Shown here in pieces: positions 2,065 to 61,413 of a stretch of 64,000 nucleotides of DNA. The notes under the pieces were generated by a model that saw nothing but the letters and a program-made list of their open reading frames with translations, ran no database searches and was not told where the DNA came from. Every line of letters starts with the position of its first letter. The stretch's first letter is position 1. The position numbers and the translations under genes are program-made. Source of the DNA: Camelus dromedarius (Eukaryota); NCBI RefSeq assembly GCF_036321535.1, contig NC_087436.1, positions 21,144,001 through 21,208,000 of the forward strand, read 5' to 3'.

Positions 2065-2214
2065 AGCCTGCCCTGCACTTTGGGGATGCTGAGTATCACG
2101 TCTATGGAAGTGCTGGCTCCGTGGAGGTGTGTGTCTGGAGGACGGGCACTGACCTTTCCCCAGTGTCCTCTGTCACCGTGCGGTCCAGGAAGACAGAGCC
2201 TGCATCAGCAGAAG
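2065..2214 (+). CDS. FREM3: FREM3 penultimate coding exon (Calx-beta domain N-half)
   Basis: TAG acceptor, GTGAGA donor, 150 nt phase 1-1; (E)[53 protein letters not shown]3 is the known convergent neighbour of SMARCA5. Confidence 0.93.
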
Positions 2215-5200: not shown

Positions 5201-5550
5201 AAAGTCATGATCATCATCTTAACCATTCCAAATAAAAAAGAGAAGTTCTTCCACTACAAATTGAAGTTGCCTTCAGAGAGCCTTCAGTCTGTTGGTGGGA
5301 TTTTGGTGGAAGCGCTCAGAAGGTGATGGCTTGCACTGGTGAGGATGGCACATGGTCACAGATGCGTGGCTATTGTGGCATTTGGTAGAATATGGAAATT
5401 TCCCCTTTCTGGGGATCAAGTCCACAGAATATGATTCTGAGAGTGCTGTGTACATAGGAGAATGATTCAGACCTTCCATTTTTTTCTCTGAAGGAAAACT
5501 TATGACGGTGAATCCTACAGTCTCACTCTTGGCTTTTCCTTTCCCACTAG

Positions 5551-5792
5551 CTGGAATAGACTACGTTGGCATCAGCCGAAATCTGAATTTTGCTCCAGGA
5601 GTGCACATGCAGATATTCCGAGTGACAATCCTTGAAGACCTGGGAGAGCCCATCTTGGAGGGTCCAGAGAGGTTTGAATTATTTCTCGAGATGCCTATAG
5701 GTGCGGTGCTTGGAGAACCAAATAAAACCACCATTTTCATCAGTGACATCATCACTGACCGTAAACAAAGTGCTTGTCATTCCCTTGAGTGA
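5551..5792 (+). CDS. FREM3: FREM3 last coding exon (Calx-beta C-half plus short tail, TGA stop)
   Basis: Pyrimidine tract + TAG acceptor; (A)[79 protein letters not shown], resembling the recalled human FREM3 end (..TDCKQSACSSFD). Confidence 0.93.
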
Positions 5793-6074
5793 AAGACTTC
5801 AAGGGAGAAGAAAGAGCCAAAACATGTCCCCTAATAACACAGTTTCTAGATCTTAGCAGTTCTGGGATATCAATGATACTGTACTGTCGTTTGTGTTATA
5901 TCTATTCTGGTGATATGTGCAAATATAGTTTATGTAACTGTACAAATATATATATATACACACACACACACAGAGAAAGTATTGAACCCAGAAATGATCA
6001 ATTAGTCTGTGCTCTTTGTGTTTTTCCATTTTCTTTTACTTTGTTACTAAGGCCAGTGAACCCCACTGTCATCA

Positions 6075-6080
6075 ATTAAA
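6075..6080 (+). terminator. Candidate FREM3 polyadenylation signal (ATTAAA; alternative AATAAA at 6326-6331)
   Basis: Hexamer about 280 nt after the stop with a T-rich tract at about 6109-6114; usage cannot be shown from sequence. Confidence 0.4.
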
Positions 6081-7840
6081 TCAACAGTTAAAAACAAAAG
6101 GATGGACCTTTTTTCGCTGATTGATGCTGGACAGAAAGCACTCTTCAACTATAGATATACCACCATCCTCTTTCAGTTTCCTTACTGACATTTGCAGATA
6201 AGCCTAAATCTCCTTTTTTCCAATTGCTCGATCTTCCTCCACTACAAGCCTTAATCGGAGCCACTTAGAAGGGAAATCCTTTCATCGACTCTCTCTTCTC
6301 TTGCAAACTCCTTTTTAAAGAGGATAATAAATGAGAAAGTGATAAAAATGCAAGTACCACAAGGGAGAACAAGGAAAAGTTGAAGAGTTGTATAATCCCC
6401 AAACTGCCCAATTATTTCTTTACTCATTTTAAGTGGACAGTGTCATTAACCATGAATACATTTCAGCTAATACTACGTAAATTAGAGTTTTCAAAATATT
6501 TTGAAATATTTTGAAAACCACATCTTTGTGCCCCATCATTATATTTTAGGCATTTCTTGTAAAAAACATTTTTAAATTTGTATTTTAGACATGACTTAAC
6601 CTGTTCTCAAGCCAACATAGCACGTGATAAAAACCGTTTCAAGAAGCCAGTTCCTGAAATATGGAGCAGGAGATAAGAAGGCTGTTGACATCCACGGGGT
6701 TTGCATGTAGAGGTAAAGAAGTCTTCTCTCGCATCAGCCCAAGTTTTGCTTCATTCGTGGACAACATCACCTTCCCCCACCAGAGAGGAGACCTTTCCAA
6801 ACTACTTCCCATCTCTTCACCTCATGTCTCCCTCTGTAAAATGAGAGTTTGCACTCCATTTCTGTTAAGATCCCTTCCAATTCTAATTCCTGTCTGGGCA
6901 AATATCTACTAACAGAAAGTCACGCTCCCTTGTCTTGCATTTTGTCTGACTACTAGGATCAAATGTCTTTTAAACTCAATTATATTCAACAAACATTTTT
7001 GGGGGGCTTCTCCAACACGTCAGAGAGATATGGACTCTTCATAAATGTTTAAAGAAGAAGGAGGAGGAGGAGGAAAGGAGAAAGGAGAAGAAATAATGAG
7101 AAAACTACGTCCTGGCCAGGATGATTCTCAGATTCATCCAACAGATCCTACAGATGTCCTGACTCAGTTCCCAAATGAAACATCCATCTTGACCTCTCCA
7201 ATGAGTACTTCCATGCCCAGGAGAAGTTCACATCATCAGCCTTGTATTTAAAAAAAAAAAAAAAAGCCATGGAGAATTCTATTTTGCACCTGAAATTAAT
7301 CCCAGTCTTTCAATGTTTTGCAGAAAATCACTCTTTTTCTTGTTCTGTCTTTTGTTAAGGAATTACGTTCAGATAAATGCAGTGTTTCCATCTTTTTTTC
7401 TGGGTGATGTTCGCCACAGTGCTTTCTAAGAAGTCAGCCTGTTCCACTCCCAGTTTCCTCCCAGTAACTCATGCCAGGGTAGCAAAACTAAGTTTTTTAG
7501 GCTTCTCGGATAAAACCTAGGGTATTCTAGATACCACCTGTGGTGTACTCAGCAGCTGGGTAATGAAAGTGATGTAATGGCTTAAAAGAGAGAAAAATGG
7601 CTCATTTCCTACCAAGAATGGAATTACATACTATGGAAAATTGGGCTCATTTTCCGTCCTTGTGTATTCTTCCCCAATGTTAACATTTTTATGGAGAAAA
7701 ATATATATACTTTTTTTCTCACTTAATATTTTAGTTTTCTTAGGGATTTGGAAGGCATAATGGAGATGTACCAGGTGCTCCATGCAGTCATTGTCACTGT
7801 GTAAACTCTAAATGGAAAGGCGTTGTACTTTTCATTCCGG

Positions 7841-8036
7841 TACCAGGGCCCAATTTAAGGAGCCCACATACAGGGTGAATGAAAAGGACAGGCAGCTAAG
7901 GGCAGTCATTTCCCGGAGCGGAGACGTCAGTCACGGGTCCTCACCCACCACCACACCCGCCAGGGCTCAGCCTAGGTGACCATGGGCTACGAGGGGCAGC
8001 CCAACACTGATGACTCCACAGTCAGTCTTCTGCCAG
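7841..8036 (+). pseudogene. FREM3: FREM3 relic exon (FREM2-like Calx-beta 4 N-half)
   Basis: QFKEPTYRVNEKDRQLRAVISRSGDVSHGSS/HTRQGSA*VTMGYEGQPNTDDSTVSLLP vs FREM2 [62 protein letters not shown]; frameshift, TAG at 7973, acceptor CGG, donor GAAAGC. Confidence 0.9.
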
Positions 8037-10070: not shown

Positions 10071-10239
10071 CTGAGAAGCAGAAAACACCCATGTGGTAAA
10101 TTTCGTGGACGATGCAATTTATGAAAAAGATGAAGAGTTCACAGCCTTTTATTTGACTCTCAGAAAAGAAGCACCACCTTGGGAGCTGCAGTTGGGGACC
10201 CCAGTGAGGCCCTGGTCAGGATGGAGGATGAAGAAGACA
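10071..10239 (+). pseudogene. FREM3: FREM3 relic exon (Calx-beta 4 C-half)
   Basis: EKQK/HVVNFVDDAIYEKDEEF/LLFDSQKRSTTLGAAVGDPSEALVRMEDEED vs FREM2 [54 protein letters not shown]; two frameshifts, donor GGGAG. Confidence 0.85.
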
Positions 10240-10566
10240 GGGAGATTTTAGTTACTTTCTACTTTCAGGGCTGGTAGGAAATACCAAAGTCAGGAGCTAG
10301 AAATTCACAAATTAAAGAGGTGTTGATCAACACATGTTCTAAGTCTAGATATAAGAATTAAGTTGCACATACCCTGCCTGAAGATGGAGAAACTATTTTA
10401 TAGAGCCATTATTAACCGTTTTTCCCACATGAGATTTTTTTCCTACACAATTTGAGAATCCACTAGTTCTCTAAACATGACCGTAGGAATGTCTCTATAG
10501 GCATGCATTGTCCAAATTGTAAATGGAATCATAACTTGGAGCAGAACTTAATTAACCCTATTACAC

Positions 10567-10636
10567 TCCATTGTGAGGGTTCACACAAAGGACAGCTCAG
10601 CCGCTTCTGGGGGAAACCACAGTCCTGTGTCTAAAG
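10567..10636 (+). pseudogene. FREM3: FREM3 relic exon, 3' part only (Calx-beta 5)
   Basis: [23 protein letters not shown] vs FREM2 [23 protein letters not shown]; 5' part absent, donor CTGGGG. Confidence 0.85.
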
Positions 10637-12214: not shown

Positions 12215-12326
12215 ATGTCACATTCCTGGAAGGAGACACTGAACATTTTGTTGGAGTTGAGATCTTTTATGATGAGCTGAGGGAAATGGGAGAAGCCCTG
12301 ACAGTTTACTTAAAACCAAATGACAG
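12215..12326 (+). pseudogene. FREM3: FREM3 relic exon (Calx-beta 5 C-half)
   Basis: TTTCAG acceptor; (D)VTFLEGDTEHFVGVEIFYDELREMGEALTVYLKPND vs FREM2 [37 protein letters not shown]; frame open, 3' end shortened. Confidence 0.9.
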
Positions 12327-15056: not shown

Positions 15057-15211
15057 GTAGCCAAAGCCATTGTGTACATTGAAAAAACAGTGTCAGAGAT
15101 GTCACCGTTCCAGCTCTGCCCGAAGTGGTGTCTCCACTCACGTACGATAGCATACCTGCTACCAAAAACAACAGAAGCCCTCCCACTGGTTTCGCACTTG
15201 CGTGTGTGACG
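15057..15211 (+). pseudogene. FREM3: FREM3 relic exon
   Basis: TTTCAG acceptor; VAKAIVYIEK/SVRDVTVPALPEVVSPLTYDSIPATKNNRSPPTGFALACVT vs FREM2 [53 protein letters not shown]; frameshift in an A6 run; donor GCAGGA. Confidence 0.9.
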
Positions 15212-15777: not shown

Positions 15778-16041
15778 GCTTGTAATCCCAAATCCTCCAA
15801 CTATGAGAAGATAGGAGCCATCTGCTCGACTGAGAGCACTGGTGACACCCTGACCCTCTGGATCCAGGCTCCCGGCAGCAGGGACGGGGTTGCCAGCCCC
15901 ATGCAGGAAGTGGACGGACTTCAATACTTTCTTCATGGACACGAAATCCATCACACGCAATCCCATCTGTTTCCAAGCCATCACTGCCAGTGGTGATGTG
16001 GGACTTGAGCTGCTGAGTCCAGTTGTCAGACAAAGAGGATG
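15778..16041 (+). pseudogene. FREM3: FREM3 relic exon
   Basis: TTTTAG acceptor, GTGAGT donor; ACNPKSSNYEKIGAICSTESTGDTLTLWIQAPGSRDGVASPMQEVD/FNTFFMDTKSITRNPICFQ-AITASGDVGLELLSPVV vs FREM2 [66 protein letters not shown]; GGAC duplication and deletions. Confidence 0.92.
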
Positions 16042-21400: not shown

Positions 21401-24400
21401 TTCATTTATCTTCTCTTTTTTAGATTCCACATATAAGTGATAGCATATGGTTTCTTTCTCTTTCTGGCTTACTTCACTTAGAATGATGATCTCCAGGTCC
21501 ATCCGTGTTGCTGCAAATGGCATTATTTTATTCTTTTTTATGGCTGAGTAGTATTCCATTGTATAAATATACCATAGCTTCTTTGTCCAGTCATCTGTCT
21601 ATGAACATTTAGGTTGCTTCCATGTCTTAGCTATTGTAAATAGGGCTACTATGAATATTGAGGTGCATGTATCTTTTTGAATTAAGGTTCCCTCTGGATA
21701 TAAGCCCAGGAGTGGGATTGCTGGATCATATGGTAAGTCTATTTTTAGTCTTTTGAGGGGTCTCCATACTGTTTTCCATAACAGCTGCACCAAACTACAT
21801 TCCCACCAGCAGTGCAGGAGGGCTCCCTTTTCTCCACACCCTCTCCAGCATTTGTCATTTGTGGACTTTTTAATGATGGCCATTCTGACTGCTGTGAGGT
21901 GATAATCTCATTGTAGTTTTGATTTGTATTTCTCTGATAATTAGTGATAGTGAGCATTTTTTCATTTGCCTATTTGGCCATTTGTATGTCTTCATTGGAG
22001 AATTGCTTGTTTAGGTCTTCTGCCTTTTTTGTTTGGGGTATTTGGTTTTTTGTTATTAAGTTGTATGAGCTGTTTATATATTCTTGAAATTAAGCCCTTG
22101 TCAGTCTCATCTTTTGCAAGTATTTTCTCCCATTCCATAGGTTGTCTTTTTGTTTTGCTTATGGTTTCCTTTGCGGTGCAGAAGCTTATCAGTTTAATTA
22201 GGTCCCATTTGTTAATTTTTGCTTTTATTTCTATTGCCTGGGTAGACTGCCCTAGGAGAACGTTGCTGAGATTTATGTCAGAGAATGTTTTGCCTGTTTT
22301 CTTCAAGAGGTTATAGTGTCTTGTCTTATGTTTAAGTCTTTAAGCCATTTTGAGTTTATTTTTGTGTAGGGTGTGAGATAGTGTTCTAACTTCATTGATT
22401 CACATGCAGCTGCCCAGTTTTCCCAACACCGTTTGCTGAAGAGACTGTCTTTACTCCAGTGTATGCTCTTGCCTTCTTTGTCAAATATTAACTGACCAAA
22501 AGTTTGTGGGTTTATTTCTGGGCTCTCTATTCTGTTCCATTGATCCATATGTCTGTTTTTGTACCAATACCATGCTGTTTTGATTACTGTAGCTCTGTAG
22601 CATTGTCTGAAGCCTGGGAGGGTTATTCCTCCAGCTTCATTCTTTTTCTTCAGTATTGCTTTGACAATTCTGGGTCTTCAGTGATTCCATATAAATTTTA
22701 GATATTTGTTCTAGTCCTGTGGGAAAATGTCCTGGGTAAGTTGATAGGGATCACATGAAACCTGTAGATTGCTTTGGGTAGTATAGCCATTTTAATAATA
22801 TTCTTCCAATCCAAGAACATGAGATATCTTTCCATTTCTTTAAGTCATCTTCAATTTCCTTAGCGTTTTGTCATTCTCCGCGTATCAATCTTCCACTTCC
22901 TCGTTCAGATTTATTCCTAAATATTTAATTTTTTTGGATGCAATTTTAAGAGGGATTGTTTCTTTATTTTCCTTTTCTGATACTTCATTGTTAGTGTAAG
23001 GGAATGCAACTGACTTCTGTATGTTAATCTTGTATCCTGCTACCTTACTGAATTCTTTTATCAGCTCTCTTAGTTTTTGCATGGAGCCTTTAGGGTTTTC
23101 TATATATAGTATAATGTCATCCACATATAATGACAATTTTACCTCTTCTCTTCCAATTTGGATCCCTTTTATTTGTTTTTCTTGTCTAATTAGTATGGCT
23201 AGGACTGGACTTCCAATACTATATTGAATAGAAGTGGTGAGAGTGGGCATCCTTGTCTTGTTCCAGATTTTAATGGGAAGGCTTTCAACTTTTCACCATT
23301 GAGTACTACGCTGGCTGTAGGTTTGTCATAAACAGGTTTTATTATGTTGCAATATGTTCCCTCTATACTCACTTTGGTGAGACTTTTTACTTTAGATGGG
23401 TGTTGAATTTTATCAAGTGCTTTTTCTGCACCTGTTGAGATGATCATGTGATTTTTGTCCTTTTCTCTTGTTGATGTGGTGTATCAGGTTGATTGATTTG
23501 AGTATGTTGAACCATCCTTGTGTCCCTGGGATAAACTCAACTTGATCATGGTGTATAATCTTTTTATGTGCTGTTGGATTCTGTTTGCTAATATTTTGTT
23601 GAGGATTTTTCCATCTATGTTCATCAGCGATATTGGCCTATAGTTCTTTTTTTTTTTTTTTTGGTAGTGTCTTTGTCTGGCTTTGGTATCAGGGTGATGG
23701 TGGCTTCACAGAATGAATTTGGGAGTGTTCCCTCCTCTTCAATCTTTTCGAAGGGTTTGAGAAGGATCAGAATGAGAAGAGCTCTTCTTTGCATGTTTGA
23801 TAGAATTTTCCAGTGAAGCCGTCTGGTCCTGGACTTTTGTTTGCAAGGAGGTTTTTTATTGCTGATTCTATTTCATTTCTAGTAATTGGTCTGTTCAAAT
23901 GATGTTTCTTCTTGATACAGTTTTGGTGGACTGTATGTTTCTAGAAACTTGTCCATTTCTTCTAAGTTGTCCAATTTATTGCCATATAGTTGTTCATAGT
24001 ATTCTCTTATGATTTTTTGTTCTTCTGTGGTGTTGGTTTTAATTTATCCATTTTCATTTCTTACTTGTGCCCTCTCTCTCTTCTTGGTGAACTTGCATAA
24101 ATGTTGTTAATATGAACATTCTAGAAGTCACATAAAGTTCCTGAAGTTTAGATATGTCCTGGTATAATGCTGTCAGTCATAATTCTAGTTGTTATCTTGA
24201 AATGTTGTAAGTCACAGCAACTTGAATAAGCTTCTTTGTCAAAAAACAATTGTAATCAGATCTTTTACCTTGCCTTTTTGGGTCTTTTGGTCATTCATAG
24301 ACAGTTAAGCTGATGCTTTGCAGGACCACTTCATCTTCAGGTGGATTTGTAAAAGTGACTTTTTGACAAGTACAGGCTTCTTTTTAATCATACTTGCTCA

Positions 24401-24580: not shown

Positions 24581-24670
24581 ACTCCCTGTCTCCACCCAGC
24601 ATGCACATCAAAGAGGAAGGCAGGATGGTGGTCAGCTGCAGGACAGAGGGTGGCTGGCCATGTCTCCCCT
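24581..24670 (+). pseudogene. FREM3: FREM3 relic exon
   Basis: Pyrimidine tract + CAG; SLSPPSMHIKEEGRMVVSCRTE vs FREM2 [22 protein letters not shown]; 3' part frameshifted or deleted. Confidence 0.8.
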
Positions 24671-24927
24671 GAGCCTTGCTGCTAGGCAACAGCACTGCCT
24701 CACCCAAAGAAGTCACCAATCTGCGTGAGATCGCAGAAGCTTTGAGAAAAATTCAAGCATTGGCTGCCGAGAAATACCAGTGGTCTGTAAGAGCAGTACA
24801 CATTCCTCACTGGGTTTCTCCAGGGTTTTTGAAACAAGATCATGTCTGATGAGTGATGGTTCACTGCAGCTGAGCTCTGGAAAGATGCTGCCATTGCCTA
24901 TAATCTGTCCTCTCCCCAGCTGCCCAG

Positions 24928-25055
24928 GTGCCTCTCCCTCCTCTCAGGGGATGGCTGCAGACCACCCTAATGCCTCCCTTACATGGAGCCTCTTGAGGAA
25001 GGAACCCACCTTCCATCAACCAGCACAGCACTGGTGTTTCATCTCAGATTTCACA
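24928..25055 (+). pseudogene. FREM3: FREM3 relic exon, frame and both splice sites intact
   Basis: CAG acceptor, GTGAGT donor; ASPSSQGMAADHPNASLTWSLLRKEPTFHQPAQHWCFISDFT vs FREM2 [43 protein letters not shown]. Confidence 0.88.
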
Positions 25056-25917: not shown

Positions 25918-26042
25918 ATCTGAGACTACTCTGGGATGTACCCAGAAGTTAATTTCATGTAAGCCACCAAGAATACATTTTACTCATCATCTGTCACCTG
26001 CAGGATCCCATCACCTTTGGCTTTGATATCAGGTTCCAACAG
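25918..26042 (+). pseudogene. FREM3: FREM3 relic exon
   Basis: CAG acceptor, GTAAGG donor; I*DYSGMY/KLISC/HQEY../SVTC/DPITFGFDIRFQQ vs FREM2 [45 protein letters not shown]; TGA at 25921 where R is expected; several frameshifts. Confidence 0.9.
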
Positions 26043-28044: not shown

Positions 28045-28158
28045 GTCAATGACCCAGTTGCAGCTGAATTCAGTCCCAATACCCAGATGTTTCTCTTCTC
28101 CACAGAGGAGACGTGGTCCATGGGCTTTGAGAAGGGACTGAGGTGATCTTTTCCAAAG
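28045..28158 (+). pseudogene. FREM3: FREM3 relic exon
   Basis: TAG acceptor, GTAAAA donor; [37 protein letters not shown] vs FREM2 [42 protein letters not shown]; deletion + frameshift. Confidence 0.92.

Positions 28159-28184: not shown

Positions 28185-28770
<586 letters not shown>

Positions 28771-32673: not shown

Positions 32674-61413
<28,740 letters not shown>

Follow-up and report, generated by a model that had tools for sequence, protein, structure and literature searches.

Placental FREM3 is about one third short, and this locus raises the question of how the protein came to end where it does and what became of the missing part. We analysed a window of 64,000 nucleotides of dromedary DNA, i.e., the whole stretch of which a piece is given above, whose plus strand carries the 3' end of FREM3; the peptide encoded by the last exon is identical to camel FREM3 entries. 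The RNA runs past an old splice donor into a former intron, and the lost membrane-anchor part consists of decayed exons. We hold this overall anatomy, comprising the position of the donor, the read-through tail and the dead exons downstream, to be practically certain.

Identity of the camel gene

Camel FREM3 has eight exons and no stop codon, as determined by tblastn of the protein P0254 against 140 kb of upstream DNA together with the window, in which the individual exons matched at 94-100%. 'Low quality' labels had hinted at a pseudogene, a possibility ruled out by the eight exons without a stop. Orthology to FREM3 is supported by twelve Cadherin_3 (CSPG) repeats together with three Calx-beta stretches found with Pfam, and by a tree of 25 proteins in which all 17 sequences labelled FREM3 separated from the 6 rows labelled FREM2 (100/100), with the marsupial sequence grouping with placental FREM3. 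By the same Pfam count, opossum FREM3 has five Calx-beta stretches. The membrane segment and the C-terminal xSEV PDZ-binding end are absent from both camel and human FREM3. Judged from these domains, the placental product is predicted to be secreted and to lack Calx-beta 4-5, the conserved region at the C-terminus, the membrane segment and the xSEV PDZ motif.

In the same tree, the branches of placental FREM3 far exceed those of FREM2 in length (0.36 for rat FREM3, 0.11 for gerbil FREM2), which suggests that selection has relaxed on the retained part as well. P0181, a bird protein that bears the label FREM2, groups with reptile FREM3 and ends in SSEV; it is probably a mislabelled full-length bird FREM3. 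The Marmota monax model P0139 ends in FREM2-like residues and looks like FREM2 or a chimeric prediction. At the other end of the window, a gene of the SNF2 family of remodellers occupies 31500-64000 on the minus strand and converges on the region of the relic exons, its last coding piece lying near 32674 (open reading frames from ~32.7 kb). These minus-strand chromatin remodeller reading frames are presumably SMARCA5.

Table 1 Coordinates of FREM3 features in the window. A slash in a donor sequence marks the exon-intron border.
Feature	Position	Strand	Remarks
FREM3 exon 7	2065..2214	+	coding, first half of third Calx-beta; normal donor AAG/GTGAGA
Ancestral exon 8	5551..5760	+	210 nt, phase 1-1, finishes third Calx-beta (Pfam profile positions 52-117 of 119)
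Dead ancestral donor	5758..5766	+	ACC/GTAAAC, GT at 5761-5762, +5A, +6C
Read-through tail	5760..5792	+	codons 5760-5789 and TGA 5790-5792, former intron 8
Candidate poly(A) signal ATTAAA	6075..6080	+	short U run downstream
Candidate poly(A) signal AATAAA	6326..6331	+	A-rich, U-poor downstream
Relic exon 9	7841..8036	+	acceptor changed AG>GG and donor GT>GA; frameshifts and one stop
Relic exon 10	10071..10239	+	acceptor kept, one frameshift, donor GT lost
Relic exon 11	10402..10636	+	clear over 10567-10635, 5' border uncertain; GT of the donor lost
Relic exon 12	12215..12324	+	acceptor kept, last seven codons unaligned
Relic exon 13	15057..15211	+	acceptor kept, frameshift, donor GT>GC
Relic exon 14	15778..16027	+	acceptor kept, frameshift and deletions
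Relic exon 18	24581..24648	+	5' part
Relic exon 19	24918..25055	+	open frame, donor ACA/GTGAGT kept, 5' limit approximate
Relic exon 20	25918..26042	+	two frameshifts, both splice sites kept
Relic exon 21	28045..28158	+	carries a frameshift and a deletion, retains AG and GT; final relic recovered

The last exon of FREM3 runs through an ancestral splice donor

At its 3' end, FREM3 reads ACT GAC C/GTAAAC, the frame running on across the donor through ten codons to a stop. Searching the camel genome with this exon returned two matches, the exon itself and FREM2. Exon 8 of FREM2 in the same genome (L003) measures 210 nt in phase 1-1, ends in GAT T/GTGAGT and is followed by an exon reading LPKMQFK; FREM3 5551-5760 is of equal length and 67% identical to it. 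A fish Frem locus (L014) carries a donor at the same codon (GAC T/GTAAGT), and reading through that donor yields C-K-stop, the two residues with which the usual placental tail begins. A metagenome scan gave one locus, a fish. According to Pfam, the FREM3 donor falls on a domain boundary, as the third Calx-beta ends there.

The preliminary description had stated that similarity to FREM2 stops at the GT at 5761 in phase 1 and that the tail is former intron read through an ancestral donor. Both statements are borne out by the 210-nt exon 8 of the two paralogues and by the phase-1 intron present at this codon in FREM2 as well as in fish. The tail itself is unlike FREM2 exon 9, being identical to its start at 7 of 32 nt, which rules out that it represents coding sequence of the outgroup.

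Remains of the lost exons lie downstream

Ten of the 16 lost exons (9-14 and 18-21, FREM2 numbering) align in order between 7841 and 28158, with scores of 168-302 vs 67-104 for controls when FREM2 exons were used as DNA queries. Per-exon HMMs gave 14-50 bits for the relics vs at most 3 bits for controls. In tblastn searches with 14 of 15 full-length FREM3 C-termini, those that could be anchored, the output held no reversed-control or minus-strand match. FREM2 similarity had been proposed to resume at 7841 with an LPKMQFK-like sequence; relic 9 does begin at that position and reaches an alignment score of 268 vs 82-96 for reversed and opposite-strand controls, with a 1-nt gap four bases in. In total, the relics carry 7 frameshifts, 1 stop and lost splice sites; with the relics disabled in this way and 6 of the 16 exons not found, no functional spliced long FREM3 isoform was recognized in camel.

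Neither DNA alignment nor per-exon HMMs found exons 15-17 and 22-24 in 5000-40000, and exons 22-24, with the membrane segment, left no trace between relic 21 and SMARCA5. Exon 24 diverges fast and may be undetectable. A gene model of the black rhinoceros (P0343) holds relics 16 and 19; with its exon-16 relic as query, no FREM3-side match was obtained genome-wide in camel. Rhinoceros relic 16, absent in camel, is open for 111 codons with 19 of 69 invariant residues changed, and the rhinoceros relics look better preserved.

The gap left by exons 15-17, from relic 14 to relic 18, contains pieces of open reading frame on the minus strand (21599-23292), which we take to resemble LINE-1 ORF2. A perfect (CA)60 microsatellite is located at 28540-28660, just 3' of the last relic exon.

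The ancestral donor has decayed

We compared the dead donor with 23 used donors, 16 from FREM2 and 7 from FREM3 (the latter taken as the best GT near each exon end), and with 157 intronic decoy GTs. Its pairing with U1 comprises 4 of 9 matches at -1.9 kcal/mol vs -4.5 to -13.8 kcal/mol for the used donors, and its matrix score is -2.1 vs 2.9-11.8 (small own-genome leave-one-out matrix), so that it ranks last of 24 by either measure; 57% of the decoys score as high. The earlier suggestion that the donor is now weak is upheld by both scores, which are of decoy grade, and its +5A is common to mouse, where the donor ACT/GTGAAG can be read from a published RT-PCR reverse primer (PMC7004800). Donor DNA was available for these two placentals, camel and mouse.

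Among the used donors, 22 of 23 have +5G, including all five without -1G. The exon side of the FREM3 donor has no match to U1, and positions +5 and +6 are now A and C. Because of this missing match, the donor leaned on +5G and +6T, and in its ancestral form it belongs to the type that, without -1G, depends on +5G. A donor that is dead at present gives no date for its death. In alpaca, hyenas, tarsier and star-nosed mole the tail starts with H or Y, which shows that even the GT has been lost there, by independent decay. An ab initio cat model (P0244) still splices this donor to relics 9 and 13, and, given that the model joins the donor to relic 9, the FREM3 splice sites may be usable in cat.

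Possible polyadenylation in the former intron

The candidate poly(A) signals at 6075 and 6326 named in the preliminary description are both present, with no other canonical hexamer from the stop to relic 9, but their spacing is not beyond chance, as a hexamer occurs within 300 nt of a random point of the window in 48% of cases and within 550 nt in 67%. A search for a transposon origin of the signals, which was weak and skipped common words, matched 5980-6480 to itself only. In the best three RNA or guessed-RNA runs, shares of 0.62, 0.57 and 0.56 of the words of 5500-6400 were present, with 0.21 expected if transcripts end at the donor, 0.60 if they end near 6100 and 0.88 if near 6350. These shares hint at an end at the first signal, 6075.

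The tail is present in mRNA of mouse, since an RT-PCR reverse primer that lies in it amplified oligo-dT skin cDNA (PMC7004800). This primer translates to TNCEEECV, equal to the rat C-terminus; the forward primer could not be placed. FREM3 exon 8 thereby has three of the marks of a composite terminal exon, i.e., a donor homologous to used donors, a weak 5' splice site and an in-frame stop in the retained intron.

The short form is common to the sampled placentals

Homologues were taken from the best 120 of 452 and the best 120 of 1954 matches, plus cluster members; the lists are without xenarthrans, elephants, bats, pigs, whales and monotremes. Among the matches listed, FREM3 entries of fishes, amphibians, reptiles and marsupials that include exon 8 go on into L/V-P-K/R. 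All 10 marsupial models listed are long (2980-3188 aa), and 9 of them have the hydrophobic segment and the xSEV end, the model of the devil being incomplete. The placental tips, drawn from Afrotheria, Euarchontoglires and Laurasiatheria, are short in 38 of 38 cases, most of these C-termini being gene models. Taken over the 262 fetched proteins with a match to exon 8, 135 continue and 127 are short, the latter being placental with the exception of three unnamed fragments and one partial fish model.

One shared old event had been proposed from the resemblance of the camel tail to the human tail, given as CKQSACSSFD, a sequence that proved correct (P0211). The truncation is old and shared, as seen from the long marsupial and short placental proteins sampled and from relic residues common to camel and rhinoceros. 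The likeness of the tails is by itself no proof of a single event, because orthologous intron DNA would be alike anyway.

The tail evolves close to neutrality

Nineteen tips have a tail of ten residues, for which parsimony requires 28 changes, i.e., 2.8 per site, compared to 1.35 per site in the rest of exon 8 and 1.27 over the protein as a whole; among ten-residue windows, 1% are as variable as the tail. Neutral simulation gave 31.4±5.1 changes (P 0.28, with branch lengths assumed or interpolated). In the other 19 of the 38 tips the tail is lost, shortened or replaced: caniform carnivores and rabbit stop before it, squirrels stop at it, and tails of 3-7 residues are found in tarsier, lorises, beaver, rat, sirenians and afroinsectiphilians. 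When the frameshift in a mink model is corrected, the now non-coding tail is 8/10 identical to human, within the 6-9 of coding tails. The idea of some constraint on the new tail is not borne out by the number of changes or by the mink copy.

Tail length behaves differently, in that 1 of 28 boreoeutherian tips exceeds ten residues vs ~9-10 in simulations (P 0.003-0.02, five tips stopping upstream excluded). This bias against longer tails is the one sign of selection, though gene-model bias could contribute to it. Overall, the tail appears to be a near-neutral by-product, with selection at most keeping its length short.

Some lineages have endings of their own. All caniform RefSeq models (P0138, P0078, P0141, P0013) end in IND-x-I and so have in common a second truncation, which falls two codons short of the old donor. 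Tarsier, loris, beaver, sirenian and murid tails (P0005, P0037, P0150, P0151, P0206) end in CL, FL or CV, as from shifts into one short frame; the other shifted frame, giving a long tail, is hardly seen in these lineages.

Timing of the loss

The relics differ at 68 of 459 sites and the still-coding exon 8 at 2 of 62; the count took the first two positions of codons whose residue is conserved in at least 90% of 16 full-length FREM3. Neutral decay of FREM2 exons, simulated through the same pipeline, gave divergences of 0.052, 0.150, 0.216 and 0.333 at distances of 0, 0.10, 0.20 and 0.43. With the baseline allowed for, release from selection lies ~0.12-0.18 substitutions per site back, an estimate that counts detectable exons alone and is thus biased young, and that uses assumed branch lengths. 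As neutral distances, ~0.20 was assumed between camel and the placental root and ~0.43 between camel and the marsupial split. A release as early as the marsupial split gave 0.33 in the simulation, far above the relic divergence; release was late, about the base of the placental crown, at or slightly after it. The relic age is somewhat below the 0.20 assumed to the placental root, which counts against loss on the stem.

Relic 19 of camel and rhinoceros has three changes in common, L>A (requiring two base changes), V>A and Q>H, all absent from the 16 full-length FREM3 and from FREM2, and these shared residues favour decay on a common stem. Of the 13 changes that camel has in 51 invariant columns, cat shares only 2, which fits common-stem and separate decay alike. 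Where relics 9 and 13 are in frame, they showed no lesion common to these two species.

How the truncation may have arisen

We lean, with somewhat better than even confidence, toward a course of events that began with the donor. The ancestral FREM3 would have been a 24-exon, FREM2-like membrane protein, of which exon 8 would have turned into a composite last exon late on the placental stem, near the base of the crown. Loss of +5G would have made splicing fail at the exon 8 donor, a poly(A) signal of the former intron, more probably that at 6075, would have directed cleavage of the RNA, and a stable mRNA without downstream junctions would have resulted. The change may have been tolerated because three whole Calx-beta remain and FREM2 would cover the membrane-bound role.

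Polyadenylation may instead have come first, as for sFLT1 or secreted IgM, with a short secreted isoform beside the long one in the ancestor, a long form that became dispensable and a donor that decayed later. The ancestral donor without -1G in FREM2 and fish suits this order, as a weak 5' splice site favours composite sites according to the available text of PMC10651852; so do the cut at a domain boundary, the C still found as first tail residue in most lineages, which is compatible with a kept GT, and the youth of the relics relative to the long placental stem. We nonetheless consider it rather unlikely, given that no non-placental short isoform ending at exon 8 is annotated among the fetched proteins with an exon-8 match, that camel and mouse have the +5A in common and that the tail lacks the sequence constraint which the end of a long-used functional isoform might show. 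An improbable order, in our judgment, is one opened by a deletion or nonsense change within exons 9-24, e.g., loss of exons 22-24 with the membrane segment, which would have killed the long mRNA and left read-through with intronic polyadenylation as a rescue. Without a terminal exon the spliced form could not have ended properly, and exons 22-24 are traceless up to SMARCA5; yet the fast-diverging exon 24 may have escaped detection, deletions also occurred late, as exon 16 is gone from camel and open in the rhinoceros model, and relics 9 and 13 of camel and cat have no lesion in common.

It is very unlikely that the long form persisted into the radiation of placentals and that several superorders lost it independently, the tails being alike through the orthologous intron only. 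All placental tips are short, the three relic-19 residues are shared by camel and rhinoceros, and the +5A occurs in both halves of the boreoeutherians. The relic divergence, which does not exceed the assumed distance to the placental root, would agree with parallel loss, as would the few changes common to camel and cat and the 1 stop seen vs 5 simulated, but the estimate uses detectable exons alone and assumed branch lengths.

Relation to known systems and meaning

FREM3 is a new case of a known process, a fixed read-through truncation that is real and well supported. The IgM heavy chain is made in secreted and membrane forms by a regulated switch, and its tailpiece is functional and conserved. 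As in secreted IgM, a composite terminal exon provides FREM3 with a short intron-derived tail in place of membrane exons; unlike the functional, conserved and regulated IgM tailpiece, the FREM3 tail evolves neutrally. Soluble FLT1 arises by polyadenylation in intron 13, as the available text of PMC2926593 describes, and in this case too the RNA of a membrane-protein exon continues past the donor into the intron, where polyadenylation yields a secreted product that has no membrane segment. Whereas sFLT1 is, in that text, a regulated alternative beside an intact receptor, the short form of placental FREM3 is fixed and its downstream exons are dead. With composite intronic poly(A) sites, as presented in the available part of PMC10651852, FREM3 shares a weak 5' splice site, a candidate poly(A) site close by and no splicing between them; those sites lie in living introns, in contrast to the FREM3 intron, which lacks a working downstream exon and whose poly(A) site is a candidate.

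Zebrafish Frem3 has the domain structure of Frem2, is partly redundant with Frem2a and enhances frem2a loss, according to the accessible text of PMC2855323. FREM2 and zebrafish Frem3 share exon 8 and its intron phase with placental FREM3 and keep five Calx-beta, the membrane segment and the Grip1/2-binding C-terminal motif, all of which placental FREM3 is without. Mouse FREM3 has an NV domain along with twelve CSPG repeats plus three Calx-beta, and its knockout is normal (PMC7004800); it localises independently of the Fras1/Frem1/Frem2 complex (PMC10095167, available text). These mouse papers (PMC7004800, PMC10095167) describe the short protein, and their available texts contain no account of its origin or date, of relic exons or of the long marsupial form.

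Among the openly searchable papers listed, none was found on the origin of the FREM3 truncation, the relics or the timing. The short FREM3 protein was already known; the mechanism, relics and timing are apparently new within the literature searched. The mammalian truncation may already be treated by Gautier et al. 2008, on the zebrafish fras1/frem genes.

The locus offers a dated, exon-by-exon record of a membrane protein turned into a secreted one by fixing intron read-through. As the general mechanism is known, the surprise is moderate. The case also illustrates that a tail common to placentals need not be under selection.

Tentatively, early placentals may have made both long membrane-bound and short secreted FREM3, the long form staying under selection to about the placental radiation before it was dropped. 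Marsupials would then keep in the Fraser complex a GRIP-binding backup for FREM2 that placentals lack; hence mutation of FREM2 alone would cause Fraser syndrome in people and mice, and in zebrafish frem2a, frem2b and frem3 would have to be removed together. The truncation joins three separate published facts, namely that zebrafish Frem3 backs up Frem2, that mouse FREM3 localises without the Fraser complex and that the knockout is normal. It leads to the prediction that long opossum FREM3 should bind GRIP1 and rescue Frem2 loss, and that short FREM3 should not.
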